A stretch of 32,000 nt of DNA from Gallionellaceae bacterium (GCA_009773615.1 WSYA01000003.1:21167-53166), one strand, 5' to 3'; numbered from the stretch's first letter, positions 8,720-28,845 are shown. Notes: generated by a model not told the origin, from the sequence alone. Program-made: numbers and translations.

Positions 8720-11032
8720 ATGATCAACATCGAAATTGACGGCAAGCGCATCGAAACGGAAAACGGTACGACCGTGATTGAGGCCGCGCATAAAGCAGGC
8801 ATCAGCATTCCGCATTTTTGCTATCACAAGAAGCTATCCATCGCGGCGAACTGCCGCATGTGTCTGGTGCAGGTTGAGAAAGCACCCAAGCCGCTACCCG
8901 CCTGCGCTACGCCGGTGACCGAAGGCATGAAAGTGTTCACCGCATCCGAGCAGGCAGTGAAAGCGCAAAAGGGTGTGATGGAGTTTTTGCTGGTTAACCA
9001 TCCACTGGATTGCCCGATCTGCGATCAGGGCGGCGAGTGCATGCTGCAGGATATGTCGGTCGGTTATGGCGGCGGTGCATCGCGTTACCATGAAGAAAAA
9101 CGCACTGTGTTAAGCAAAGACATCGGGCCGCTGGTCTCGGCCGAAGAGATGAGTCGCTGCATCAATTGCACACGCTGTGTGCGTTTCGGTGCGGAAATCG
9201 CCGGTCAAATGGAAATGGGGCAGGCGTTCCGAGGTGAACATGCCGAGATCATGACCTTCGTTTCAGGCACAGTAAACTCCGAACTCTCCGGCAACATGAT
9301 CGACCTGTGTCCGGTTGGTGCGCTCACCAGCAAGCCGTTCCGTTACAAGGCTCGCTCTTGGGAATTATCGCGTCGCCGTTCGATCAGTGCGCACGACAGT
9401 TTGGGCACTAGTCTGGCAGTGCAGACCAAGAACAATCACGTATTGCGCGTATTGCCCATCGAGAACGAAGACATCAATGAATGCTGGTTGTCCGACAAGG
9501 ATAGATTCGCTTACGAAGGGCTGAATTCCGCCGAGCGTTTGACCAAGCCCATGATCAAACAAGATGGCAAGTGGCAGGAAGTGGAGTGGCAAGTCGCGCT
9601 GGAGTATGCGGCGAACGGGCTGCGCCACATCGCCAACGGGGCGGGAGCGGAACAGATCGGTGCGCTGGCGACAGCAAACTCCACGCTGGAAGAGCTTTAC
9701 CTGTTGCAAAAACTCATGCGCGGCATCGGCAGCGACAACGTGGATTTCCGTCTGCGTCAATCCGATTTCAGTGCCGATGATAAACAGCAAGGTACGCCTT
9801 GGCTGGGCATGCCTATCGCCGATATCAGCCGCTTGGATAGCGTATTGATTGTCGGCAGCTTCCTGCGCAAGGATCATCCGCTACTGGCTGCACGTATCCG
9901 TCAGGCAGTCAAGAAGGGTGCGCAAGCCAACATCATTCATTCTGTCGATGACGACTTGCTGATGAAAGTGGCGAACAAAACCATCGTTGCGCCTGATGCG
10001 CTGGTGGCCGCGCTGTCTCAGGTTGCGCAGGCATTGGATGCAGAAAAGAACGGTAAAGCGCAGACCGCAAGTGCCGGGGCGGTTGCCATCGCCAAGAGCC
10101 TGTCCTGCGGCGGATGCGTCGCCGTACTGCTCGGCAATTTCGCGCAACAACATCCTCAGGCCGCACAGCTGCAAGCGTTGGCACAACAGATTGCGGCGTT
10201 GAGCAATGGCAAGTTCGGTTTCATCGGTGAAGCGGCAAACAGCGTCGGCGGTTATCTGGCGCACGCCACACCGGGAACGAAGGGGTTGAATGCAGCATCC
10301 ATGCTAGCGACCCCGCGCAAGGCTTATGTGCTGTTGAATGTGGAAGCGGAGTTGGATACAGCGAATCCGCAGCAGGCTATCGCCGCGATGCAGTCGGCCG
10401 ATCTGGTTATCGCGATGTCCGCGTACAAGCACCACGCGACCTCTTATGCTGATGTGTTGTTGCCTATCGCGCCGTTTACCGAGACTTCCGGCACGTTCGT
10501 CAGTACCGAAGGTCGCGTGCAAAGCTTCAAGGGCGCAGTTAAACCCTTGGGTGAAGCGCGTCCTGCATGGAAAGTTTTGCGCGTGTTGGGCAATCTGCTG
10601 AAAATTTCCGGTTTCGATCAGGACACCTCCGAAGCGGTGCGCGATGAAGCGCTCAAGGGCGTGGACGTTGCCGCCAAGTTGAGCAATACGATTAGCGCGA
10701 TCGATACGAATGCGGTTTCCGCAGCGGGCGGTTTGCAGCGCGTGAGCGACGTGCCGATCTATGCGACGGATGCTGTGGTGCGCCGTTCCGCGCCGTTGCA
10801 GGCCACCGTGGATGCGGCCACGCCGCAGGCATGGCTGCACAGCGAAGAGCTGAAAAAGCTGGGTGTGCAAGTAGGCGCGACAGTTAAAGTCAGCCAAGGG
10901 CAGGGCAGCGTGAGCATAGCGGCAGCAGCCGATGATAAATTGCCCAGAGGTGTGGTGCGAGTGGCTGCGGGTCATGCTGCTACAGCCGCTTTAGGCGCGA
11001 TGTTTGGTACGATCACAGTGGAGCGCGCATGA
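8720..11032 (+). CDS. nuoG: NADH-quinone oxidoreductase subunit G
   Basis: 770 aa. N-terminal 2Fe-2S and 4Fe-4S cysteine motifs ([46 protein letters not shown]). Confidence 0.95.
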
Positions 11033-18855: not shown

Positions 18856-19371
18856 ATGACGACGCGTATCCCACCCTCACTAAAATGGCTAATAAATAAA
18901 CGGGCACGGCTGCAAGGCGATATTGCCAAAGCAGAAAAAGAGCTGACCGAGTTGATCAAGCTCAAGCAGAGGGATATCCAAAGTCTTCGGAATAACCTTG
19001 CCTCTGTTGATAATACCATTCGTCTGCACGAGATTCGAATCGACCCGACTCTAATCAGGCCTATCCGTGGGCCAACAAATAGCCGATTCTTCGCACACGG
19101 CGGCTTAACTAATTTGGTACTGTCGTGCGTGTCTAAAGCCCATCCGCACCCGATCAGCACTACCGACATTGCCATCTCGATTGCGGAAAGCGTGAGCATC
19201 GATCTTCAAGGCGAAGATTTCTCGGCGCTACGCACAAGCGTCCGCCACCGGATGAAGCAAATATGCTCTAGCGGATGGGTGGACAGAACCCATGCCACCA
19301 AAACATTTCAAGAAGGCAGCTGGCAGTTAAGTCCGAAGGCTATCCTCTATTTTAAGCAGGTCATTGAGTAG
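18856..19371 (+). CDS. Hypothetical protein (N-terminal coiled-coil, C-terminal wHTH-like region)
   Basis: 171-aa ORF with an ATG start. The heptad-like stretch LQGDIAKAEKELTELIKLKQRDIQSLRNNL is followed by ...ISTTDIAISIAE...RHRMKQICSSGWVDR. I recognise no family. The last 45 nt overlap the convergent transposase gene. Confidence 0.5.
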   Translation: MTTRIPPSLKWLINKRARLQGDIAKAEKELTELIKLKQRDIQSLRNNLASVDNTIRLHEIRIDPTLIRPIRGPTNSRFFAHGGLTNLVLSCVSKAHPHPISTTDIAISIAESVSIDLQGEDFSALRTSVRHRMKQICSSGWVDRTHATKTFQEGSWQLSPKAILYFKQVIE

Positions 19372-20436
19372 TATTTCATCTCCGCGTCGGTTGCCTTGCC
19401 AATAACCACGCCACCATTCCGATAGGCCGTTTTTATTGCACATTTTTAGCAGCTCAGTAATTTTTTCTAACGTTGTCATTGTTCTCGTATCCTCACGCCA
19501 AGCCATCTCTTGCGAATAGTCCATGAGGTAAGTTGGCGTTATACGATGGGTCGTGCCATATTCCATGCGGCGTAGACGAGAAAAAAATGATTCGGCCTGA
19601 TTCTCGTTTACCCCGTCATCCCTGCAGTACTCGATGGAATGCTGCACGGCCATGTGTGTATAACCGAGCGTATTGAGTTTTGAATATGCAGGGTTCTCAT
19701 CCGACATGATCGTGCTGCCCTTTTCCACATAGCGATGAATGAAGGCTAGCGCGTCCCTCTCATTTTCAGTCTTTCCTACGCAGACAATAGTTTTAACTGC
19801 CTTCTTACCCTCCGCATCCAGCTCACGTAGTACATACGTCACACGCTTATTGGCCTTCTTTTTCAAGTTAAGTTGCGAACAACCCTGGTAACGTTTTCGC
19901 TTGGCAGATCCTTTCTGATTTATCCGCGCCATGACCTCTTCAGGCGTTATTTTGCGTCGACGGCGAGCTCTTCTAGGCTTCCCACCAAAATGACCCCCAT
20001 CGACATGGATAATCCCTTTTAGCAAGGGCCGATTAGCTTGTTTTACCAATACCTCCTTTAGCTTCCCTTCGAATGTTGCTGCCGATTTCGCTTGAATACC
20101 GAGCAACCGAGACATCTGAAGTGCAGACATTCCTTGGGCAGCGCTGGTAAACAACAACAAAGCCGTCAGTAGCAGTTTGTAAGGTAGTCGATGTCCATCG
20201 AACACCATACCGGAAGTAACGCTGAAACAATGTTCGCAACTCTTGCACTTCCATTGTCTGCGCTTGGTGCGGAAATAATGATTGTCGATCAGCCCGCACT
20301 GCGGGCAAACTTGATGATCTCGACTTTTCCAACGATGTTCTGCAAAGAACATCATGGCATCGTCCTCAGACATGTCTAGAATGTCTTTAAGGGAAAAGTC
20401 TCGTAGTGCTGCGCTAAGCAAAAAATGTTGCGTCAT
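19327..20436 (-). CDS. IS1595-family-like DDE transposase (zinc-ribbon N-terminus plus ISXO2-like catalytic domain)
   Basis: CPQCG...CKSCEHCFSVTSG zinc ribbon. IHVDGGHFGGK, IMSDENPAYSKL and HSIEY...VNENQAESFFSRLRR..YGTTHRITPTYLMDYSQEMAWREDTR match my memory of the IS1595/ISXO2 motif order. I prefer the ATG at 20436 (MTQHF..., with GGAG 9 nt upstream) to the track's 20631 start. Confidence 0.75.
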   Translation of the reverse strand: MTQHFLLSAALRDFSLKDILDMSEDDAMMFFAEHRWKSRDHQVCPQCGLIDNHYFRTKRRQWKCKSCEHCFSVTSGMVFDGHRLPYKLLLTALLLFTSAAQGMSALQMSRLLGIQAKSAATFEGKLKEVLVKQANRPLLKGIIHVDGGHFGGKPRRARRRRKITPEEVMARINQKGSAKRKRYQGCSQLNLKKKANKRVTYVLRELDAEGKKAVKTIVCVGKTENERDALAFIHRYVEKGSTIMSDENPAYSKLNTLGYTHMAVQHSIEYCRDDGVNENQAESFFSRLRRMEYGTTHRITPTYLMDYSQEMAWREDTRTMTTLEKITELLKMCNKNGLSEWWRGYWQGNRRGDEILLNDLLKIEDSLRT

Positions 20437-20757
20437 AATGATTAACTCCAAAAATACGGAGCCAATCCAAAGGCAAAGTTTGGCCAACGGCATCGTACGA
20501 AAAAGTCCGATACCGCTGTTTTCAAGCAACACAACAACACATCCATCTTGACAAAAACCAAGAAGACATCTAATGTGCGAATCATTCGGAGTGCATTCGA
20601 ATGTTTCAAGTGATAGAGCTAGGATCCGCATCCATGGCTCTTTTACTTTCTACCGTGCTAATTCATTTGGTTGGTTTCCTCAGCTTTAAAAAAGACTTCC
20701 ATTTCTGGAAGCCGCTCAATGCGCCATCCCCTTACGGCGACAGCACAATTCAATATT

Positions 20758-21036
20758 TCACTTTCCTTTATCTTTATTCATTTGGAAGGCCGCCGCATCT
20801 CTCTGTGTAGCAAGCCAGTTTGCGATATCTTTGACCAAGGCGTACTTACCTCGACGATTTGGCAAAGCAAATACGGGAACCGGAACAGTTTTCCTAGACA
20901 ACGCTTGTCGAAATGCGGGCATTGATGGATAACCAAGGGCAAGTCGCAAATCTTCGTTTGAGATCATCGGGCCATATTTGTTATTGAGCGATTGTTCCAG
21001 CTCATAAACCAGACTATTAATTGCAGGTGCGCTCAT
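20758..21036 (-). CDS. Small DNA-binding protein, PrtN (pyocin activator) or AlpA/excisionase-like
   Basis: 92 aa. ISNEDLRLALGYPSMPAFRQALSRKTVPVPVFALPNRRGKYALVKDIANWLATQRD resembles the PrtN-family pattern (a brief note on the setting, then 'hit the K/R-G-x-x-V-x-x-x-D-hydrophobic-A-x-(W/Y)-L' C-terminal motif). From memory only. Confidence 0.5.
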   Translation of the reverse strand: MSAPAINSLVYELEQSLNNKYGPMISNEDLRLALGYPSMPAFRQALSRKTVPVPVFALPNRRGKYALVKDIANWLATQRDAAAFQMNKDKGK

Positions 21037-21160
21037 TTGTATTACTCACTTATGCTTTGTTATAGCGGGTTACTGCCGGTGATTGTTTAATAATTTTCCG
21101 AATTTTCCCAGTGTCGCGTTATCATGAATAAACAGACTCTTGACAACGACACATTCTCTA

Positions 21161-21895
21161 ATGCCAAAGTCGCGCGGACAACCACCGAAAACCGATATTG
21201 AAAGGTTGCAGTCCAAGTTATGGTTTACTGCTGTGTCGCTGCAATCAGGAATGAATGCCAGCCAACTTGAGCGATTCTTTCTCGTGCGATCCGATCCTGC
21301 GAATGGAGGTACCAAGGAGCTTTCTCATGATTGGCTGAGATATTCGAGCGGGAAACGATTGCCGCGAGATACAAGAGGAAGTAACAACAGTGTTGTTACC
21401 GTTGTGGACGATGCATTTCCGGGAACTGCACAATGGATTCGCAGCCCATTATGGACGCTCTTGAAAAATCCAGAATTGAGTTCCCGAGAACTTATCGATT
21501 TAATTACGCAGACGCACCAAGAAATCGGCAAATTGTTTGTCTATGATGAGGTTCCCACTGTGTCGGCTAAGGCACTTACGATTAGCGTGGAAAACTGGAA
21601 ATATCTTGCGCGGATAATGTCATTCGAAGTGTTCGGTATCATGCTTGCCTACTACAGACTAAGAGGAATACATGGCGATCATTTTAATTCGATATGCCTG
21701 AAAGACTGTAGGCGATGGCTGCATTATGCACATTCTCGGTTACCCTCTATAAGAGAGCACCGCGACGAGTTGGTTTTTGTGTTGCAAAAATTCGCACCTG
21801 AATTGGGAAATTTAAGCTATTTTGGAAAAGAGGTGCCGGATCGCGACCCGTTTGCAGAAATGGTGATGTCTTCGTTAGGGTACGATTTTGAGTAG
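21161..21895 (+). CDS. Hypothetical protein
   Basis: Long ORF of island-like composition, divergent from the PrtN-like gene. The start is either ATG 21161 or TTG 21140 (the track start). No motif recognised. Confidence 0.5.
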   Translation: MPKSRGQPPKTDIERLQSKLWFTAVSLQSGMNASQLERFFLVRSDPANGGTKELSHDWLRYSSGKRLPRDTRGSNNSVVTVVDDAFPGTAQWIRSPLWTLLKNPELSSRELIDLITQTHQEIGKLFVYDEVPTVSAKALTISVENWKYLARIMSFEVFGIMLAYYRLRGIHGDHFNSICLKDCRRWLHYAHSRLPSIREHRDELVFVLQKFAPELGNLSYFGKEVPDRDPFAEMVMSSLGYDFE

Positions 21896-21900
21896 GTAAT

Positions 21901-22617
21901 CTACTGGCGCACTGCATCCGATGGTAGTTGAATCCCGCGAGAAGCCAATTCATCCCTTAATGTTTTTAGGTATGCACTACTGATAGTCACCGTTCCTCCA
22001 ATAGGAACAGCACCAGTTGTTCGATTAAATCCATCAGTCGTTGCCACGGCAAGAACCTGTCCAATAAACAAAGTTAATGGATGTCCGGAATTAATTGCAT
22101 GATCAAGAATTGCGGGCGTCAGCATGAAATAATCAGTCCACCAGCAAGAGTAGCCAATATTGCTCTGGCATTGTGCGTCTCTGCCATACCCCTTCATTTG
22201 ATATGCGGAAAGCCTTAGTTCATTATTCATCTGAAACTCATTGAGCAACTTTTTATTACCAGCATCGTCAACTAGGTATACCCCAGCCCCTGACGTGAAA
22301 ATTCCACTGTTCGTTTGCTCGACTTTCAAAAAATATACGAGGGCATTTTGGGGTTGATTGTTTGTGATCCCAACGTATACGCGCCCGGTTAATTGCCCAT
22401 TAGCGTTATAGGACCAAGAATAGCCAGTTAAAGCAGACGAGGTATAAGTTTTCACCTTGTTGCAATCTGGACAACGGGGATAACCAGTGCGAACTGAAAT
22501 TCCTTGCCTGACATCAGACTCATTTTTTGCAACGGTATATTGGGGATCTAGGGCACATCCCGCTAACCATGAAGTGGCAGCAAGAAATATCGAAGCGCGT
22601 ACAAGTTTCTTAATCAT
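21901..22617 (-). CDS. Putative lipoprotein
   Basis: Signal peptide with lipobox: MIKKLVRASIFLAATSWLAG|C. The rest is unknown and predicted to be extracytoplasmic. An alternative ATG lies at 22629. Confidence 0.6.
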   Translation of the reverse strand: MIKKLVRASIFLAATSWLAGCALDPQYTVAKNESDVRQGISVRTGYPRCPDCNKVKTYTSSALTGYSWSYNANGQLTGRVYVGITNNQPQNALVYFLKVEQTNSGIFTSGAGVYLVDDAGNKKLLNEFQMNNELRLSAYQMKGYGRDAQCQSNIGYSCWWTDYFMLTPAILDHAINSGHPLTLFIGQVLAVATTDGFNRTTGAVPIGGTVTISSAYLKTLRDELASRGIQLPSDAVRQ

Positions 22618-22727
22618 TGCGAACCCCATACCAAGTTGGCTAGTTAATTCCTGTGGCTAGACGTAATAGCCAAGAGCAAAGATAACCCGTTTTGGGATAA
22701 CCTGCAATGGGTTACTAGTATGGGCGC

Positions 22728-23006
22728 ATGCCAAGCCCATTACATAGCCATAACTACCAAGTCTTTCGCAGCCTGCTTGTGGCTGCAAGAGAAGAGGCTG
22801 GTTTAACGCAAGTCAATATTGCTGAAAAATTGGGCAAGCCACAAAGCTTTGTCTCAAAATATGAGCGCGGAGAACGTCGGCTAGACTTTACGGAATTCGT
22901 TGAACTGGCGGATATGCTTGAGATTGATATCGCTGATTTTGTAAGTCGCTACCAATTTGCCATTTCTCAGACGCCCTCTCAGAAAGTGCGTCGGATAAAA
23001 AAGTAA
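22728..23006 (+). CDS. XRE-family helix-turn-helix transcriptional regulator
   Basis: 92 aa. LRSLLVAAREEAGLTQVNIAEKLGKPQSFVSKYERGERRLDFTEFVELADML is a classic HTH_3/Cro-CI pattern. Confidence 0.85.
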   Translation: MPSPLHSHNYQVFRSLLVAAREEAGLTQVNIAEKLGKPQSFVSKYERGERRLDFTEFVELADMLEIDIADFVSRYQFAISQTPSQKVRRIKK

Positions 23007-23193
23007 CGATAATTCGCAGCCATTAGGCTCACGTAGCCTGAAGACGGTTGATGAGGTTGCAGAGCTCTAATATTGACTATCAAAATGGAAAAATCACCAT
23101 CCGAAACCAAACTTGCGCCTTAAAGGGTATATCCCGACTTGTTGAATAAAAATCTCCTCAATACGGCTCTATCGCTTATAGCCCATATTTGTC

Positions 23194-23222
23194 TTGTGCA
23201 ATGAACAGTAGGCGGATATGAT
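23194..23222 (+). promoter_or_regulatory. Candidate sigma70-type promoter for the five-gene operon
   Basis: TTGTGC (23194-23199), a 17-nt spacer, then TATGAT (23217-23222), about 160 nt upstream of the methyltransferase start. Pattern match only. Confidence 0.25.
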
Positions 23223-23384
23223 TTGACGAAGAAGCGGCGAAATCTGATCTTTGTGATTTAGGGTACGCCGTTTTTTCGTGGACGAGCTGGAAAACAAACA
23301 TGCCAGCTTCTATCTATGGCGGTCATGAATGGGGAGACATATGAGGATATTAATTACCAGTGGCCAATTTCATAAGGATATCGC

Positions 23385-24743
23385 GTGAGAACTCCGCGCA
23401 CCTATTATGAGCTCAGTAACTCTCAAGTTAGCACGCCAGCTCCAATTGTTTCGTTCTACTGGGATATTGTTAAACAATATCGACCGCAACTTCAGCGCGT
23501 AATCGATTTAGGGGCTGGAGATGCGCGTTTCAGCCACGGCGGCCATTTCGAAGAATATGTCGGAGTAGAAATTGATCCCAATGCCGTTCAGCACATTCGG
23601 CCATCCTCCCCCAAACAGATTAAATCCAGTCCCAACACCTTTGAGCAAATCCAGCTGACTTCGCGTAGCCGAATAGAACTTGGCTGTGCATTCCGATTTA
23701 AGGAAACTGGATTTTCCGCCTGTATAGGCAACCCTCCATATGTGCGTCATCATGATATTGAATCGCCATGGAAAGAAGATACCGCTAACTATCTAGCAAA
23801 AGAGCTGGATTTTAGTTTTAATATGCATGGGAATCTATTCTTATACTTCATCGCACTTGGGTTGCTAAAGACAAGTGATGATGGATTGCTGGCCATGGTG
23901 GTGCCGTTTGAGTGGGTTTCTCGGCCATCTTCAAAAGGCCTGCGAAACCTCATTAATAAACATAAATGGGACGTAAGTATTTATCGCTTTCAAGAGTCGA
24001 TATTTGACGGGGTACTAACTACTGCTTGCATTACTATAATCGATAAAAATTCCAATAACGGTAATTGGCAGTATTTTGATGTTTCTGAAGACCTTCAAGT
24101 CTCTCCAAGAAAAGGGATAAGTGGCACAGATCAAGAGATTTTGCAGCACAGCAATAGAAGTGAGGTGTGGGCACGTCGTGGCATAAGCCCCGGCTCGCAG
24201 GACATATTCACTCTTACTGATGGACAGCGAATTCACTTTGGATTAACTCTTGATGATGTGATCCCGTGCGTAACAACATTACGCCACGTTCCAAAGTCAC
24301 TTCGAATGTTAACCTCCAAAACATTTAATAAGTATTTTGTAGATGAGGGAAAGCTCTGCTGGCTGATTAAATCCAATGAGCATCCAATAAGCGATCAGTT
24401 GCAAGCGTATCTGGATAGTATTCCAGAGTCTGACAGACAAACATACACTTGCATTAATCAATTTCCATGGTACGACTATGAAAAATCGGCCATACCAGAT
24501 TTACTTATCCATTCTGGGTTTACATCGTTTGGTCCGAAAGTGCTGATTAACTCTATAGGCGCCCAAACAGTTGGCTCAGTGTTCGGCATTCATACTACGC
24601 GCAAGAATGTATTAAGAAGCATCCAGGAGTATTTACTGGATATTGATTTTGAATCGCAGGTGGTGGCTCAAGCAAATTCGTTTAAAAAAATTGAAGTGCG
24701 CCAAATGAACACCATTTTAAATAACTGGGTCAAGAAATTCTAA
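23385..24743 (+). CDS. N6-adenine DNA methyltransferase (gamma-class, Eco57I/TaqI-like)
   Basis: Motif X-like STPAPIVSFYW, motif I VIDLGAGDARF, motif II VGVEIDPNA and motif IV IGNPPYVRH, in that order, followed by a domain of about 200 aa where a target-recognition domain would sit. GTG start with AAGGA 6 nt upstream. Confidence 0.85.
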   Translation: MRTPRTYYELSNSQVSTPAPIVSFYWDIVKQYRPQLQRVIDLGAGDARFSHGGHFEEYVGVEIDPNAVQHIRPSSPKQIKSSPNTFEQIQLTSRSRIELGCAFRFKETGFSACIGNPPYVRHHDIESPWKEDTANYLAKELDFSFNMHGNLFLYFIALGLLKTSDDGLLAMVVPFEWVSRPSSKGLRNLINKHKWDVSIYRFQESIFDGVLTTACITIIDKNSNNGNWQYFDVSEDLQVSPRKGISGTDQEILQHSNRSEVWARRGISPGSQDIFTLTDGQRIHFGLTLDDVIPCVTTLRHVPKSLRMLTSKTFNKYFVDEGKLCWLIKSNEHPISDQLQAYLDSIPESDRQTYTCINQFPWYDYEKSAIPDLLIHSGFTSFGPKVLINSIGAQTVGSVFGIHTTRKNVLRSIQEYLLDIDFESQVVAQANSFKKIEVRQMNTILNNWVKKF

Positions 24744-24748
24744 CCACA

Positions 24749-27052
24749 ATGACTGAGTTAATGATTAGCAATGGAAACGTAGTTTTTCAAACTGAAGGCC
24801 GGCTTTTACAAGAGCTAGGAGAGCGTCTGGTTGCAAGTCCAGAGGTGGCACTGGTTGAGCTGGTTAAAAATTCATACGACGCTGATTCTGCTTCCTGTGA
24901 TGTTTCAATAATAAAGCTACCTATTCAAACGGACACTGTCTCTTTTGGCGACGAAGGTGTTCATACTGTTGAGGGCGACTCTGAACTAGAGGACGTTTTG
25001 TCGATAGTTGATACTGGGCATGGAATGACTCTTGATGAATTCAAGGCCAGATGGATGACCATTGCAACTTCACATAAAACAATGGAAAACATATCTCCTA
25101 GGTATGGACGCAGGAGAACTGGTCAAAAAGGAATTGGTAGGTTTGCAGTAAGATTTCTAGGCGACCATCTCACCCTCACTTCGATTGCTGAAGATAAAAC
25201 ACTTCAAAAGAAAACAAAAGTTGTCGCAGTTTTCTGCTGGCCTAACTTGGATCGAGAAACGGATATACGGGAAGCAAAGATACCCTATAAAGTTTTTGAA
25301 GTCGATCCATCAACACCAACCGGAACTGAACTTAGAATTCGTAAATTAAAGCATCCGCCTTCTTTTATTACCGGTTCAAAATTTCGTGCCGATGTACTCA
25401 AAATTGTTTCACCTTTAGCTGGATTGGAAAGTGGTCGATTTAGTGATCGTGTTGAAATTAATCACGATAAAGATCCTGGTTTTCGAACAGTACTGCCGAG
25501 CAGTATTGAAGCAGAAGCTGATAATTTAGACATCGCCAAGAAAGTTCTTGATAGATGTTGGGCTAGGCTAACAATTGACCTTTCTGCTTCGAAAAATCAA
25601 GTCACATACAAAGTTACTTTTAATGTAATTCCTGGTTCTACCAAATTAATTGTCCCTCTGAGTTCTGCTATATCAAATGGGCTTGTGGCAGACTTACGTT
25701 TCTTTCCTAGAAGAGCAGGAGTGTTTCGAGATCAAGGAATCAATGGTTCAGCTGCTTGGGCTTGGGTACGTGAAAATGTTGGCGTGGCGATAATTGATCA
25801 TGGCTTTCGAATCAAGCCTTATGGCTTTGAGGATGATGATTGGCTATCAGTGGATGCGGACAATGCACATAGTCGGCGTGACTGGCGCTCCAAAATTGCA
25901 GTAGAAAATTTCCAAATAGCCCCAGAAATCAAACCTAGGCCGAAAGAAAATCCTGCTTTAAATATAGCCACAAATTTTCAGCTAATTGGGGCGGTATTCG
26001 TTGAATCAGCCCCCGCTGCGTTGTCCGCTTCAAATAAAGATCTTACGCCCTCAATGGATCGGGAAGGTTTTTTAAGTAATGAAGCATTTGAGCAGCTTGT
26101 TGATATCGTTCGCGGAGGATTGGAATTCCTAGCAAACGAAGATAAAAAACTACTTCTGCTTGAAGAAGAAAGAAAAGCTAAAGAGGCTGCGAAAAGTGCA
26201 CGAGCCGATTTTCGCGCCGCAGTTCAATATATAGAGAAGAGTCAAACCCTCACTGAGGGCGACAAGTCCCGTTTAATTCTGCATTACACCGGCTTGGCGG
26301 CCAAACTCGATGAGGTTGAAAGCTATGATCGGGACGCTAGACGAAAACTGGAAACAATGAGCTTGCTGGGTGCAGTCGCTGGATTTATGACTCATGAGGC
26401 GACTCGTATTGTAGCTGGGCTTCAGGAGGCATTAGAAAAAATTCAATTGTTAGCCAAACGAGATCCATCGTTAACCGTGCTTGTTAATGATATTCAGGAA
26501 AGTTACGATGCATTTCGAGCGCAAATGGATTACACAAGTGCATTTATTAATGCGGTCCATTTAGACGCTAAGATTACTTTCAAGAGTGCAGCTCAAATTA
26601 AGCGCGTAATAGACAAATTTGGACATTTCGCCAAAGAAAGAGGGATCGTCGTTGAGTGCGAAGTTGATCCAACTATTGAGGCTCCGCCCATTGCACTTCC
26701 TATTTATAGCGGTATTTTGCTTAATCTATACACGAATGCGCTAAAAGCAATTCTGGCTGCAGAGTCATTAGCTCTTGTCCCTAAGATTGTATTTCGAGGT
26801 TGGAATGAGCCGAAATGGCACATTGTAGAAGTTTTGGATACAGGTATAGGTATTCCGCCTGAGTTGCATAAGCGAATTTTTGATCCTTTATTTACAACAA
26901 CTTCTCGACTCAATAATCCTCTTGGGTCGGGCATGGGATTGGGACTAAGTTTAGTTGATGAATTGCTCAGTCAACTAAAAGGAAAGATTGAAATTGTTGA
27001 TCCTCCGTCTGGGTTCGCAACCTGCATTCGAATTGCCTTACCAAGGAGTTAG
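24749..27052 (+). CDS. Dual Bergerat-fold protein: N-terminal MORC/Hsp90-like GHKL ATPase plus C-terminal histidine kinase (DHp and HATPase_c)
   Basis: N-terminal module: LVELVKNSYDAD (N box, Asn41), VDTGHGM (G1, aa 88-93), GQKGIGRFA (G2).
Coiled-coil linker: EDKKLLLLEEERKAKEAAKSARADF.
C-terminal module: FMTHEATRIV (H box, His549 = nt 26393-26395), LLNLYTNALKAI (N box), VLDTGIGIPPELHKRIFDPLFTT (G1/F), GSGMGLGLSLV (G2). Confidence 0.75.
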   Translation: MTELMISNGNVVFQTEGRLLQELGERLVASPEVALVELVKNSYDADSASCDVSIIKLPIQTDTVSFGDEGVHTVEGDSELEDVLSIVDTGHGMTLDEFKARWMTIATSHKTMENISPRYGRRRTGQKGIGRFAVRFLGDHLTLTSIAEDKTLQKKTKVVAVFCWPNLDRETDIREAKIPYKVFEVDPSTPTGTELRIRKLKHPPSFITGSKFRADVLKIVSPLAGLESGRFSDRVEINHDKDPGFRTVLPSSIEAEADNLDIAKKVLDRCWARLTIDLSASKNQVTYKVTFNVIPGSTKLIVPLSSAISNGLVADLRFFPRRAGVFRDQGINGSAAWAWVRENVGVAIIDHGFRIKPYGFEDDDWLSVDADNAHSRRDWRSKIAVENFQIAPEIKPRPKENPALNIATNFQLIGAVFVESAPAALSASNKDLTPSMDREGFLSNEAFEQLVDIVRGGLEFLANEDKKLLLLEEERKAKEAAKSARADFRAAVQYIEKSQTLTEGDKSRLILHYTGLAAKLDEVESYDRDARRKLETMSLLGAVAGFMTHEATRIVAGLQEALEKIQLLAKRDPSLTVLVNDIQESYDAFRAQMDYTSAFINAVHLDAKITFKSAAQIKRVIDKFGHFAKERGIVVECEVDPTIEAPPIALPIYSGILLNLYTNALKAILAAESLALVPKIVFRGWNEPKWHIVEVLDTGIGIPPELHKRIFDPLFTTTSRLNNPLGSGMGLGLSLVDELLSQLKGKIEIVDPPSGFATCIRIALPRS

Positions 27053-27054
27053 CT

Positions 27055-28161
27055 ATGTCGACAAAGAAGCCAACCAGCAACCTTGTTTTACTTTTCGAAG
27101 ACGATGATAAGCATGCCAATAAATTGACATTAGCTATTACTCAAGCTCTATCGCCGAGTAATAAGTTTGAACGATTTTTGCCAAGCATTACACCAACTAG
27201 CGGGGCATATGAAGATCGTTTGTATGAGGAATTAAAAAGCACCAAATATCTTGGTTTAACACTGATTGTTTGCGATAGGGATTTGTCGCAAATTAAAACG
27301 TACACCGGGCTTTCTGAAGCGATCGTTTCTAAAGTTGCAGATCGACTGGGCATTCCAATTTGTCTCTATGCTAGGGGTTTGAATGATGACTCTGTGCTGG
27401 AGAGGCAGCGTGAATGGGGAGATGGACGAATCGTTCTTGATTGTAAAAAACCAGCAGAAATGGCAACCAAAATAGAACTGTTGGCTAATGGATTCGCTCA
27501 AGTAAAGGAATTAGTTACAGGCATTTTAGTCATGAGGGGAAAAAACAAACTTCAATCCCCAGCGGCTGTTGTTGCTAGTGTGATTGATCGGCAAGACAGT
27601 ACTGACAAAATTGGCCTGTATATTTCTGGCGACCAAAAGATGATTTCTGAAATTCTTCCCTATGTGCATAATTCGGACAAAAAAGGCTTGAAGCTCAGAC
27701 TGCCAACATTGGTTGGATATTGGATATATGACTCTATTCTTCGATATCCAGGATTATTAGTAAATAAGATTGCAATAGCTAGTTATCTTAATATCGCGGT
27801 AACTGATTTTGAAAAGAATTCTGATGTTCAAAAGCTCTTTGCAAAAGCGCTATATAAAGGGCCATTTGCAGATGAAAAAAATCCGCTTTGGTGGCGAAAT
27901 GACCTTGATGACATTCTTCAGAATGGCGAATGTAATGATGGGCAAGAATACGTTCAGAAAAAACTTCATAAGACAGTGAAGCCATGCATGTGTAGTGTTG
28001 ATAAAAAGAAACGCGCCGGATGGTATTGCATGGTAACCAAAAAACCAGTTAGCCTGGAAAGTTCGAAAGGAAACATTACATGGTTTCCACGCGGTGCTGA
28101 CTTAGCCAGAATTTCTACAGCCGTCTACGATGATATTGGCCCTTGGCTGGGACTTTACTGA
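27055..28161 (+). CDS. Divergent receiver (REC)-domain protein with an uncharacterised C-terminal domain of about 220 aa
   Basis: VLLFEDDD (beta1 with acidic cluster), LTLIVCDRDL (beta3; candidate phospho-acceptor Asp74 = nt 27274-27276), IPICLYARG (beta4, with Tyr/Ala where Thr/Ser is usual), RIVLDCKKP (beta5, Lys132-Pro133). AAGGAG lies 6 nt upstream of the ATG, 2 nt after the kinase stop. The C-terminal part has the Cys cluster KPCMCSVDKKKRAGWYC. Confidence 0.6.
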   Translation: MSTKKPTSNLVLLFEDDDKHANKLTLAITQALSPSNKFERFLPSITPTSGAYEDRLYEELKSTKYLGLTLIVCDRDLSQIKTYTGLSEAIVSKVADRLGIPICLYARGLNDDSVLERQREWGDGRIVLDCKKPAEMATKIELLANGFAQVKELVTGILVMRGKNKLQSPAAVVASVIDRQDSTDKIGLYISGDQKMISEILPYVHNSDKKGLKLRLPTLVGYWIYDSILRYPGLLVNKIAIASYLNIAVTDFEKNSDVQKLFAKALYKGPFADEKNPLWWRNDLDDILQNGECNDGQEYVQKKLHKTVKPCMCSVDKKKRAGWYCMVTKKPVSLESSKGNITWFPRGADLARISTAVYDDIGPWLGLY

Positions 28162-28170
28162 GATTGCGTC

Positions 28171-28845
28171 GTGCTTAAGTATAGTGAAATCAATGGGGCG
28201 TATTTAACCCTTTGGGAGCGTTTTAAAGCTGTAGCTGAAGAGGCCGGCTTAGTTACAAAGGCATTTCAGGGAAATGGCTTTGTGGCGACGAATAAGGACA
28301 AAAAGGTCACGGTATCAGCTTTTATTTACCTTCCTGAGTGGCCATATAAAGCCGTATCAGACAAAAAGAAGATCCACATATTATTGCAGAGCAGGGAAAC
28401 GTACGATTTAAAAACATCTGAAATTATAAGTTCTACAGTTCAAATTGGTTATTTTGACATTGGTGCAAATAAAGAAGTTACATCACTTCTTCAGTTGCAC
28501 TATGACTTTGAAACTCCTGTTGCAATTGCTCATCCTGTATTTCATGTGCAACTTGGTACAACAAAGTGGCCTGAGGATAAATGCATGGATGTTAGGTTTC
28601 CCAATCCTAACGAAATTATTGAATCATCATCGCTATATTCAAATGCTCGGATTCCAACTCCACATATGGGTTTTGGTGCGGCATTGCTTGCATTAGCCGC
28701 CGACCATTTTAATCATCTCTTTTATGAAAAGTTCTTGAAAGAATTGCGACAAAACGAATCTGTGAAATGGCAGGCTTCATGTAAATCTATGCGCGACAGT
28801 TTTTCCAAAAACGGATCTCATCATCATTCCCATCATTGGTATTGA
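28171..28845 (+). CDS. Hypothetical protein (no recognisable domain; His-rich C-terminus HHHSHHWY)
   Basis: 224-aa ORF with a GTG start 9 nt after the REC-like gene. Same strand and composition as its neighbours, and it overlaps the next gene by 10 nt. Confidence 0.5.
   Translation: MLKYSEINGAYLTLWERFKAVAEEAGLVTKAFQGNGFVATNKDKKVTVSAFIYLPEWPYKAVSDKKKIHILLQSRETYDLKTSEIISSTVQIGYFDIGANKEVTSLLQLHYDFETPVAIAHPVFHVQLGTTKWPEDKCMDVRFPNPNEIIESSSLYSNARIPTPHMGFGAALLALAADHFNHLFYEKFLKELRQNESVKWQASCKSMRDSFSKNGSHHHSHHWY

Follow-up and report, generated by a model that had tools for sequence, protein, structure and literature searches.

The window analysed in this work, a stretch of DNA 32,000 nucleotides (nt) long from a Gallionellaceae bacterium (GCA_009773615.1 WSYA01000003.1:21167-53166), contains a gene for a soluble kinase in which an N-terminal ATPase in the style of MORC, MutL and Hsp90 is joined to a C-terminal histidine kinase. 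Adjoining genes encode a DNA methylase, a receiver protein and a protein of 224 amino acids (aa). We read these four genes as an anti-phage operon of restriction-modification (R-M)-like type, with the kinase as its signalling core, and as a distant sister of the Ambrosia system (probability about 0.7). The operon belongs to the same superfamily of systems as Ambrosia (AbrR-AbrA-AbrB-AbrC-AbrD), for which phage defence has been validated in Pseudomonas aeruginosa (van den Berg et al., bioRxiv 10.1101/2025.09.30.679545, hereafter the Ambrosia preprint). Ambrosia is composed of the HipB-like XRE protein AbrR, the N6A methylase AbrA, AbrB of 747 aa, the receiver AbrC of 209 aa and the HNH protein AbrD, and defence was lost in point mutants of each protein, which include AbrB N40A, AbrC D60A and changes in the methylase and HNH proteins (Ambrosia preprint).

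Both ATPase modules of the window kinase pass the Pfam thresholds. HATPase_c_3 (PF13589) was matched over aa 30-155 (E 2.2e-20, 73.5 bits, cutoff 25) and HATPase_c (PF02518) over aa 656-766 (E 3.3e-19, 69.8 bits, cutoff 26.4). This agrees with an earlier sequence-only reading, in which two separate Bergerat-fold modules were proposed in one chain and this Pfam scan was suggested; two GHKL domains were found, and not one. The N-terminal boxes described there are all present in the translation, as ELVKNSYDAD (E37, N41, D44, D46), DTGHGM (D88, G90, G92) and GQKGIGRF (G125-F132), and the C-terminal H box is there as well, as MTHEAT (H549), followed by the N, G1, F and G2 boxes.

Alignment of 73 full-length sequences, comprised of the window protein and 72 proteins from other genomes (22-57% identity), shows that the N-terminal boxes are kept in the homologues. 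Positions E37, N41, D44, D88, G90, G92, G125, K127, G128, G130 and R131 of the first ATP site are invariant or nearly so, and the same holds for N659, N663, D697, G699, G701, G728, G730 and G732 of the kinase ATP site, while H549 is kept in 72 of the 73. Because catalytic and nucleotide-binding residues are preserved throughout the alignment, the N-terminal boxes do not match by chance, and degeneration affects neither module. A family profile built from 23 homologues matches solved histidine kinases in the PDB over the DHp and catalytic (CA) domains (9m08, HK853 and others, E 6e-15 to 1e-12), and the same profile matches the N-domains of Hsp90/GRP94 over aa 5-135 (E ~4e-6).

The DHp of the window kinase matches the Pfam family HEF_HK (PF19191) below threshold (aa 540-588, E 0.0099, 16.8 bits, cutoff 24.1), and a precomputed PF19191 match is present on several close homologues (P0020-P0024); judged by these profile scores, the domain is HEF_HK-related at the borderline. 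As the sequence-only reading had noted, no transmembrane segment is evident: reading the translation disclosed no hydrophobic stretch, a dedicated predictor not having been run. In the deposit of this Gallionellaceae metagenome-assembled genome (MAG) the protein is KAF0206377.1, labelled “signaling”.

The segment of about 270 aa between the two ATPases had been described as a linker without a recognisable domain, a description that does not hold on modelling. A model of aa 1-520, built from a 36-sequence alignment (mean predicted local distance difference test score, pLDDT, 83; predicted template modelling score, pTM, 0.78), shows a folded alpha/beta domain at aa ~206-440, with elements in the order of four strands (272-279, 284-291, 298-303 and 312-318), a helix (333-342), a strand (345-350) and a helix (368-373). 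Two residues of this domain, R354 and R438, are common to all three subtypes of loci described below (73-sequence alignment). The domain is followed by helices at aa 445-497 and 503-519 (pLDDT ~90) leading into the DHp; the first, a single long helix, corresponds to the coiled coil noticed earlier at aa 464-500.

In a Foldseek search of the PDB, every match of the aa 1-520 model was a two-domain GHKL ATPase module (E 2e-9 to 3e-7, probability 1.0): full-length Hsp90 (N and M domains), MORC2 with DNA (9cdj), SMCHD1 (6mw7), MORC3 (6o1e), TopoVI-B and the N-terminal domains of MutL/MLH1. The alignments extend over ~490-550 columns and represent structural matches at 10-15% sequence identity. Since the model matches two-domain modules, the linker is read as a second domain like the transducer of GHL/MORC ATPases, a reading that the predicted structure supports. 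Against this assignment stand template modelling (TM) scores of 0.25-0.33 (0.44 when normalised to the MutL N-terminal domain) and root mean square deviations of 11-18 Å. Differences in domain orientation account for part of the low scores, and because of these scores we call the domain only “transducer-like”. The check for an S5-fold transducer suggested by the sequence-only reading thus gave support in topology and in the length of the Foldseek alignments, at low TM-scores. Its wider proposal, a MORC/Hsp90-style ATPase in the position usually taken by the sensor of a kinase, is supported by the model and the Foldseek matches, with the transducer-like domain now added to it.

The methylase, kinase, receiver and 224-aa coding regions lie on the plus strand and are separated by gaps of 5, 2 and 9 nt. 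The methylase carries motif I as DLGAGDA and motif IV as GNPPY (aa 115-119), has a precomputed M_Eco57I_C match and matches the PADLOC model MTase_II (E 1.6e-22); its nearest solved relative is CamA (7lni, E 4e-4). The R-M-like context claimed in the sequence-only reading is borne out by the methylase gene ending 5 nt upstream of the kinase, by the location in a low-GC island, and by one related locus beside genes for DUF1156 and DUF499.

The gene next to the kinase encodes a divergent receiver domain (aa ~9-135) with an acidic pair, D16/D17, and a putative phospho-acceptor, Asp74 (nt 27274-27276); by eye, its N-terminus reads LVLLFEDDD...LIVCDRDL. Positions 1-130 of a profile made from 36 sequences match VraR, PhoP, RstA, NtrC and CheY (E 4e-7 and weaker), D74 stands opposite D57 of CheY in hhalign, and 17 of the 36 family members match Pfam Response_reg (PF00072) individually. 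Only two columns are invariant in the family, and one of these is Asp74, which aligns with D60 of AbrC; furthermore, the profile retrieves AbrC-like proteins (E 1e-18 to 1e-22). The window protein itself matches nothing in PADLOC, NCBIfam, Pfam or PHROGs. Its remaining part (aa ~150-368) forms a second conserved domain, in which G, A, Y, G, F and W positions are invariant. This C-terminal domain has no match in Pfam, DNA-binding families included, and no true match among PDB sequences, where the sole result, a RAP match, was dismissed as spurious.

Some features of the operon are also expected of a constitutive R-M system, in which the GHKL protein would be a restriction subunit or motor, the methylase would protect the host, and the kinase and receiver would fine-tune the activity. 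The N-terminus of the kinase matches the NCBIfam model of BbrUII/HgiDII restriction enzymes (aa 79-202, E 2.6e-13) and a PADLOC model of type II restriction endonucleases (E 1.5e-4), and the operon starts with the methylase gene. In addition, GHKL+S5 ATPases of the MORC and paraMORC families were described in R-M operons and proposed as DNA-looping motors (Iyer, Abhiman and Aravind 2008, PMC2292703), so that the link between prokaryotic MORC-like ATPases and R-M operons, stated in the sequence-only reading, does stand in that paper. However, both matches are restricted to the shared GHKL domain, and Pfam and NCBIfam revealed no nuclease domain in the 767-aa kinase. The invariant H, N, G1 and G2 boxes, together with the receiver Asp, argue that phosphotransfer is central and not accessory, and in Ambrosia phage grown on a methylase-expressing host was not protected (Ambrosia preprint). 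We consider a constitutive R-M system improbable.

The last protein, of 224 aa, has no match in Pfam, PDB sequences, PADLOC, NCBIfam or PHROGs. Among 32 diverse members of its family, H110, H125, Q127 and R160 are invariant and D112 and P122 nearly invariant, in the motif H-F/Y-D ... HPxFHxQxGG ... PRIP. Word-indexed searches gave 8, then 14 relatives, and the AlphaFold model that rests on the 14-sequence alignment (pLDDT 87, pTM 0.86) shows a sheet of long antiparallel strands, with a helix at the N-terminus and further helices at the C-terminus. Foldseek found no match to this model in the PDB (best E 0.034, TM 0.18) or in BFVD (best E 4.8e-3, TM 0.17). Residues H110/D112 and H125/Q127 are located on two consecutive loop-joined strands, and we infer from strand geometry, rather than from coordinates, that they would form one polar cluster. 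A search with the family profile through 1.84 billion representatives gave 526 clusters; no fusions were observed among the best 150 of them, all being stand-alone proteins of ~130-300 aa. A divergent HNH protein or another known nuclease was considered and rejected as the identity of this protein, as there was no BLASTP similarity to AbrD, no HNH match in Pfam and no HNH-like fold, and hhalign against AbrD-like HNH proteins gave a probability of 0.15%. The match of one family member to DUF2290 (E 0.098) was treated as noise.

A word-indexed search with the kinase gave 917 matches, and the best 120 of these are all ~740-770 aa long and carry both Pfam domains. Relatives occur in 413 species-representative genomes, distributed patchily across phyla and including one archaeon. 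This survey of the spread and neighbours of the fusion, also called for in the sequence-only reading, showed recurrent methylase and receiver neighbours. To describe the loci, open reading frames (ORFs) of 83 of them were searched with the window proteins, published Ambrosia sequences and iterated profiles; the sample is biased by the search patterns, which favoured the subtype with the 224-aa protein.

Three types of loci can be distinguished. Type A, to which the window belongs (kinase identity 41-57%), is comprised of methylase, kinase, long receiver and 224-aa family protein. In type B (24-29%) the kinase, long receiver and 224-aa family protein are accompanied by a methylase downstream, and type C (22-23%) contains the kinase, a short AbrC-like receiver, an AbrD-like HNH protein and a methylase. 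Methylases sampled from all three types are of the Eco57I/N6_Mtase class, mostly with M_Eco57I_C. Among the 72 loci with a full-length kinase, the receiver gene directly follows the kinase in 69, and 63 include a related methylase. In 56 of them a long receiver (298-536 aa, median 358) precedes the 224-aa family, in 7 a short receiver (179-223 aa) precedes HNH, and no locus combines both output sets; 9 are unclassified, several of them having split ORFs or contig ends just past the kinase or receiver gene. The order of methylase, kinase, ~360-aa and ~225-aa proteins recurs in Paraburkholderia, Pseudomonas, Acidobacteriota, Planctomycetota, Verrucomicrobiota, Bacteroidota, Chloroflexota and others, and the subtype of the window was found in at least ten phyla.

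Three loci deserve separate mention. In an Elusimicrobiales locus (L045, 6634-11951), an AbrA-like methylase (E 7e-60 to AbrA) precedes a type B kinase, long receiver and 224-aa family protein; because this methylase is joined to a type B operon, methylase modules appear to have been swapped between subtypes. In a metagenomic type A locus (L088, 1-4603), the four-gene operon lies directly downstream of genes for DUF1156 and DUF499, a BREX-related pair, and this neighbourhood is a defence-island context. An archaeal locus, from a Methanolobus MAG (L076, 8013-13419), is Ambrosia-like: its kinase has 846 aa and is accompanied by an AbrC-like receiver, HNH and a methylase.

The distribution also bears on the idea that the kinase is a housekeeping cytoplasmic sensor, for example of nucleotide pools, and that its proximity to a methylase is incidental. 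Database names such as “sensor histidine kinase” or “signaling” agree with such a role, and NTP sensing was speculated for related proteins by Bellieny-Rabelo et al. (PMC8011034). The methylase is, however, linked to the kinase in 63 of 72 loci from many phyla, the window operon is located in a low-GC island beside a transposase, the spread is patchy and reaches an archaeon, and a homologue was validated for defence in the Ambrosia preprint. We therefore regard a housekeeping sensor as very unlikely. As the published role is in defence, the kinase also does not fall into an already characterised family with a non-defence role, an outcome raised in the sequence-only reading.

Table 1. Positions of the operon genes, the candidate regulator and the kinase domains, in window coordinates
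Feature	Position (nt)	Strand	Extent	Basis or remarks
XRE/HipB-like helix-turn-helix (HTH) protein, candidate regulator (AbrR position)	22728..23006	+	92 aa	NCBIfam HipB/Y4mF-type HTH, E 3e-8
N6-adenine DNA methyltransferase, Eco57I type	23385..24743	+	452 aa	Pfam Eco57I, E 6e-16
paraMORC-type ATPase fused to histidine kinase (AbrB-like), soluble	24749..27052	+	767 aa	ATG start
N-terminal GHKL (Bergerat) ATPase domain	24749..25363	+	aa 1-205	key E37, N41, D88xGxG, G125xKGxGR
Middle alpha/beta domain, transducer-like (S5-like)	25364..26068	+	aa 206-440	model topology, Foldseek
Long signalling helix/coiled coil, from ATPase module to kinase core	26081..26305	+	aa 445-519	model helices
DHp/H-box region	26306..26548	+	aa 520-600	putative phospho-acceptor His549 (nt 26393-26395)
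Kinase catalytic (CA) domain, N/G1/F/G2 boxes	26714..27046	+	aa 656-766	HATPase_c
Response-regulator-like protein, putative cognate receiver	27055..28161	+	368 aa	starts 2 nt past kinase stop
Orphan-fold protein, presumed effector/output partner	28171..28845	+	224 aa	position, conserved polar residues

Combining these data, a mechanism can be proposed for the operon. To judge from its motifs, the Eco57I-type enzyme would methylate DNA adenines, providing a self mark or a mark read by the effector. The kinase would act as a soluble dimer whose input is its own N-terminal module of GHKL and transducer-like domains. By analogy with MORC, MutL and Hsp90, ATP binding would close and dimerise the N-terminal gate, probably on DNA or at an infection cue; the movement of the gate could then reach the DHp by way of the long helix (aa 445-519), and the kinase would autophosphorylate His549. 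The phosphoryl group would pass from His549 to Asp74 of the receiver, a pairing shown by strict adjacency of the two genes and by homology with AbrC. The phosphorylated receiver would use its 220-aa C-terminal domain to act jointly with the 224-aa protein, a pair that stands in place of the short receiver and HNH nuclease of Ambrosia-type loci, as the mutually exclusive co-occurrence suggests. The output is the least certain step of this mechanism. Its likeliest form would be an effector activated against invading DNA, the alternative being induced transcription of the operon, as proposed for Ambrosia. A receiver-effector pair switched by phosphorylation is favoured because the extra domain of the receiver occurs only with the 224-aa protein and never with HNH.

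Several points weigh against our reading of the operon. The clade of the window kinase is the one furthest from AbrB (54.8 bits, compared with 97-150 for type C; phmmer with the N-terminal half), and pairwise comparison revealed no similarity of the methylase to AbrA, of the receiver to AbrC or of the fourth protein to AbrD. No model in PADLOC-DB v2 (2023) matches the kinase, receiver or 224-aa protein. The effector label of the 224-aa protein is derived from its position and five conserved polar residues, with no recognisable catalytic fold. An XRE-type match was found in 4 of the 83 loci, and the 3 in the subtype of the window do not adjoin the operon; membership of the XRE gene is uncertain, since it is not conserved beside the operon in other loci. 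In Ambrosia, AbrA methylation gave phage no protection (Ambrosia preprint), so that any logic connecting methylase and effector is tentative. Finally, an Ambrosia reporter was induced on infection, and its authors propose transcriptional control over direct activation of an effector (Ambrosia preprint).

The last point leads to a transcription-only explanation, in which the receiver's C-terminal domain would bind DNA and induce the methylase and 224-aa genes on infection, the 224-aa protein being a constitutive toxin or nuclease governed by its expression level alone. Apart from the reporter and the model proposed for Ambrosia, this explanation is consistent with the XRE gene upstream in the window and with a stretch in the receiver C-terminal domain, PGxLxDxxxAAxxLGIxxxxF, which appears helix-turn-helix-like by eye. 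The same domain, however, has no match to DNA-binding families in Pfam or the PDB, and it tracks the 224-aa family (56 loci against 7, without overlap), a pattern that fits physical partnership better. Furthermore, gaps of 2-9 nt would imply joint synthesis of the kinase, receiver and putative effector. Control by transcription only is thus a less likely account, although clearly more plausible than either the constitutive R-M system or the housekeeping sensor.

In its most specific form, the preferred reading of a receiver-effector pair would make the long receiver and the 224-aa protein a phosphorylation-gated effector, in which a MORC-like, ATP-driven DNA clamp feeds a His-Asp relay with a non-transcriptional, enzymatic output on DNA, and the 224-aa protein would represent a so far unseen nuclease or DNA-modifying fold built around the H-x-D/H-x-Q/R cluster. 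We put this forward as a tentative suggestion that is rather doubtful in its full extent. The 224-aa subtype may also represent the principal form of this paraMORC-kinase defence family, Ambrosia being a side branch: it accounts for 56 of 63 classifiable loci, a proportion to be read with the bias of the search patterns toward this subtype.

The operon is located in an island of ~19-29.4 kb with a GC content of 40-45%, compared with 53-57% in its flanks. The island (19000-29450) lies between the end of the nuo operon and genes for a NudE-like NUDIX protein and an ammonium transporter, and an IS1595-family transposase is present at its left edge (19327..20631, minus strand). Next to the transposase, a 92-aa ORF (20758-21036, minus strand) has a very weak excisionase-like match (phrog_1300, E 0.009). 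The XRE gene, on the same strand as the methylase and 379 nt upstream of it, also has precomputed Pfam matches to HTH_31/HTH_3 and matches PADLOC models of HTH and control proteins. Scans of 22500..29700 for promoters and terminators gave sites no more numerous than in shuffled sequence. Between the island and the NUDIX gene, at 29485-29504, there is a GC-rich hairpin whose stem has 8 pairs (6 G-C) and which is accompanied by a minus-strand T-run. The NUDIX gene itself (29553-30116, plus strand), outside the island, weakly matches the PADLOC candidate PDC-S07 (E 2.5e-6); as GC content rises there, it is probably a housekeeping hydrolase.

Additional ORFs were considered as components and rejected. 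The ORF at 28836..29447 (203 aa, TTG start), which overlaps the end of the 224-aa gene, has no homologue in the 83 loci (E <= 10) and no match in Pfam, PADLOC, NCBIfam or PHROGs; its length varies between gene callers (169 or 201 aa), one of which leaves it out. Two loci (L088 and L001) each have a gene of ~200 aa at this position, without similarity to the window ORF. Two convergent ORFs, 21140..21895 (plus strand, 251 aa) and 21901..22629 (minus strand, 242 aa), lack homologues in related loci and are without a match in Pfam, NCBIfam, PADLOC or PHROGs; gene callers do predict both. A possible paralogue of the operon at 8720..11032 (~770 aa, with a 421-aa ORF before and a 361-aa ORF after it) proved to be NuoG between NuoF and NuoH, within the complex I operon that spans ~2.8-18.7 kb of the window. 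The sizes of NuoF, NuoG and NuoH (421, 770 and 361 aa) mimic those of the methylase, kinase and receiver, and a comparison based on length could be misled by them.

The dual-ATPase kinase represents a bacterial coupling of a MORC/MutL-style ATP-driven machine to a phosphorelay, which bears on nucleic-acid sensing by MORC-type ATPases in both bacteria and eukaryotes. Most such kinases in the sampled loci are paired with a long receiver and a 224-aa protein, and not with HNH. Should this pair be the effector, it would constitute a new output module in defence and would offer a clean test of whether the phosphorelay acts on transcription or directly on an enzyme; transcriptional control is what the Ambrosia preprint proposes, although a direct effect on an enzyme is also conceivable.

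Comparison with Ambrosia was based on the first 399 aa of AbrB (preprint Table S1), which align to aa 9-441 of the window kinase with 25% identity (BLASTP, E 2e-19). AbrB has the same combination of HATPase_c_3 and HATPase_c, and its Asn40 corresponds to Asn41 of the window kinase. The receiver is the next gene in both, and Asp60, essential in AbrC, aligns with Asp74. Both clusters contain an N6-adenine methylase, that of the window being of gamma class with GNPPY and without pairwise similarity to AbrA, and the XRE/HipB-type gene upstream in the window was likened to AbrR by type and position. The differences are in the output. The window receiver, 368 aa long with an extra C-terminal domain, is homologous to the 209-aa AbrC over the receiver part only, and no HNH is encoded in the operon, where the 224-aa protein takes the place of AbrD. 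Because the HNH feature was absent on testing, the operon is not a member of Ambrosia proper. The authors of Ambrosia, who report it in Gammaproteobacteria only, set the cut-off of their hidden Markov model for AbrB at 500 bits (Ambrosia preprint), and the window kinase would probably fall below it.

A related architecture was described in silico by Bellieny-Rabelo, Pretorius and Moleleki 2021 (PMC8011034), for soluble proteins with HATPase_c_3, HEF_HK and HATPase_c, for which descent from paraMORC was proposed. The three-part architecture of HATPase_c_3, DHp and HATPase_c was found in 174 of their 222 proteins; these soluble proteins are linked to a receiver-like Response_reg_2 gene in 91.6% and are enriched beside R-M genes (PMC8011034). 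The window kinase has the same architecture, is soluble by reading, and adjoins a receiver and R-M-type genes. It differs by scoring under the PF19191 threshold (16.8 vs 24.1 bits), and Response_reg_2 (PF19192) is matched by 0 of 36 members of the receiver family at E <= 1. In addition, loci in PMC8011034 mostly contain C5-cytosine methylases, Vsr and HNH_2, whereas the window has an Eco57I-type adenine methylase and neither Vsr nor HNH. By these profile matches, the operon is outside the HEF_HK/Response_reg_2 set as Pfam defines it.

With MORC/paraMORC, SMCHD1, MutL and Hsp90 the window kinase shares an N-terminal Bergerat ATPase with intact motifs, followed by a second alpha/beta domain, and with paraMORC also the R-M gene context; those proteins lack the DHp and kinase CA domains, and the window operon, unlike paraMORC operons, is without a helicase or recognisable nuclease partner. 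The subfamily paraMORC1 was described with an uncharacterised conserved C-terminal extension and HNH neighbours (PMC2292703), and we conjecture that it could be the family of the window kinase. Kinases of the HisKA type (HK853, 3dge/2c2a) show the same H-E dyad in the DHp (H549-E550 in the window), the same CA boxes and an adjoining receiver gene. In place of transmembrane, PAS, GAF or HAMP input, however, the window kinase has a second ATPase, and its receiver, in contrast to those of classical systems, carries no recognisable output domain. The wiring, considered unusual in the sequence-only reading, is indeed unusual among kinases but has already been published (PMC8011034; Ambrosia preprint). 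The dual-ATPase architecture and its role in defence are thus known, and the window kinase is a distant added member. As the receiver extension and the fourth protein are uncharacterised, the latter without a structural relative in the PDB or BFVD, the operon is a new variant within this group of systems.

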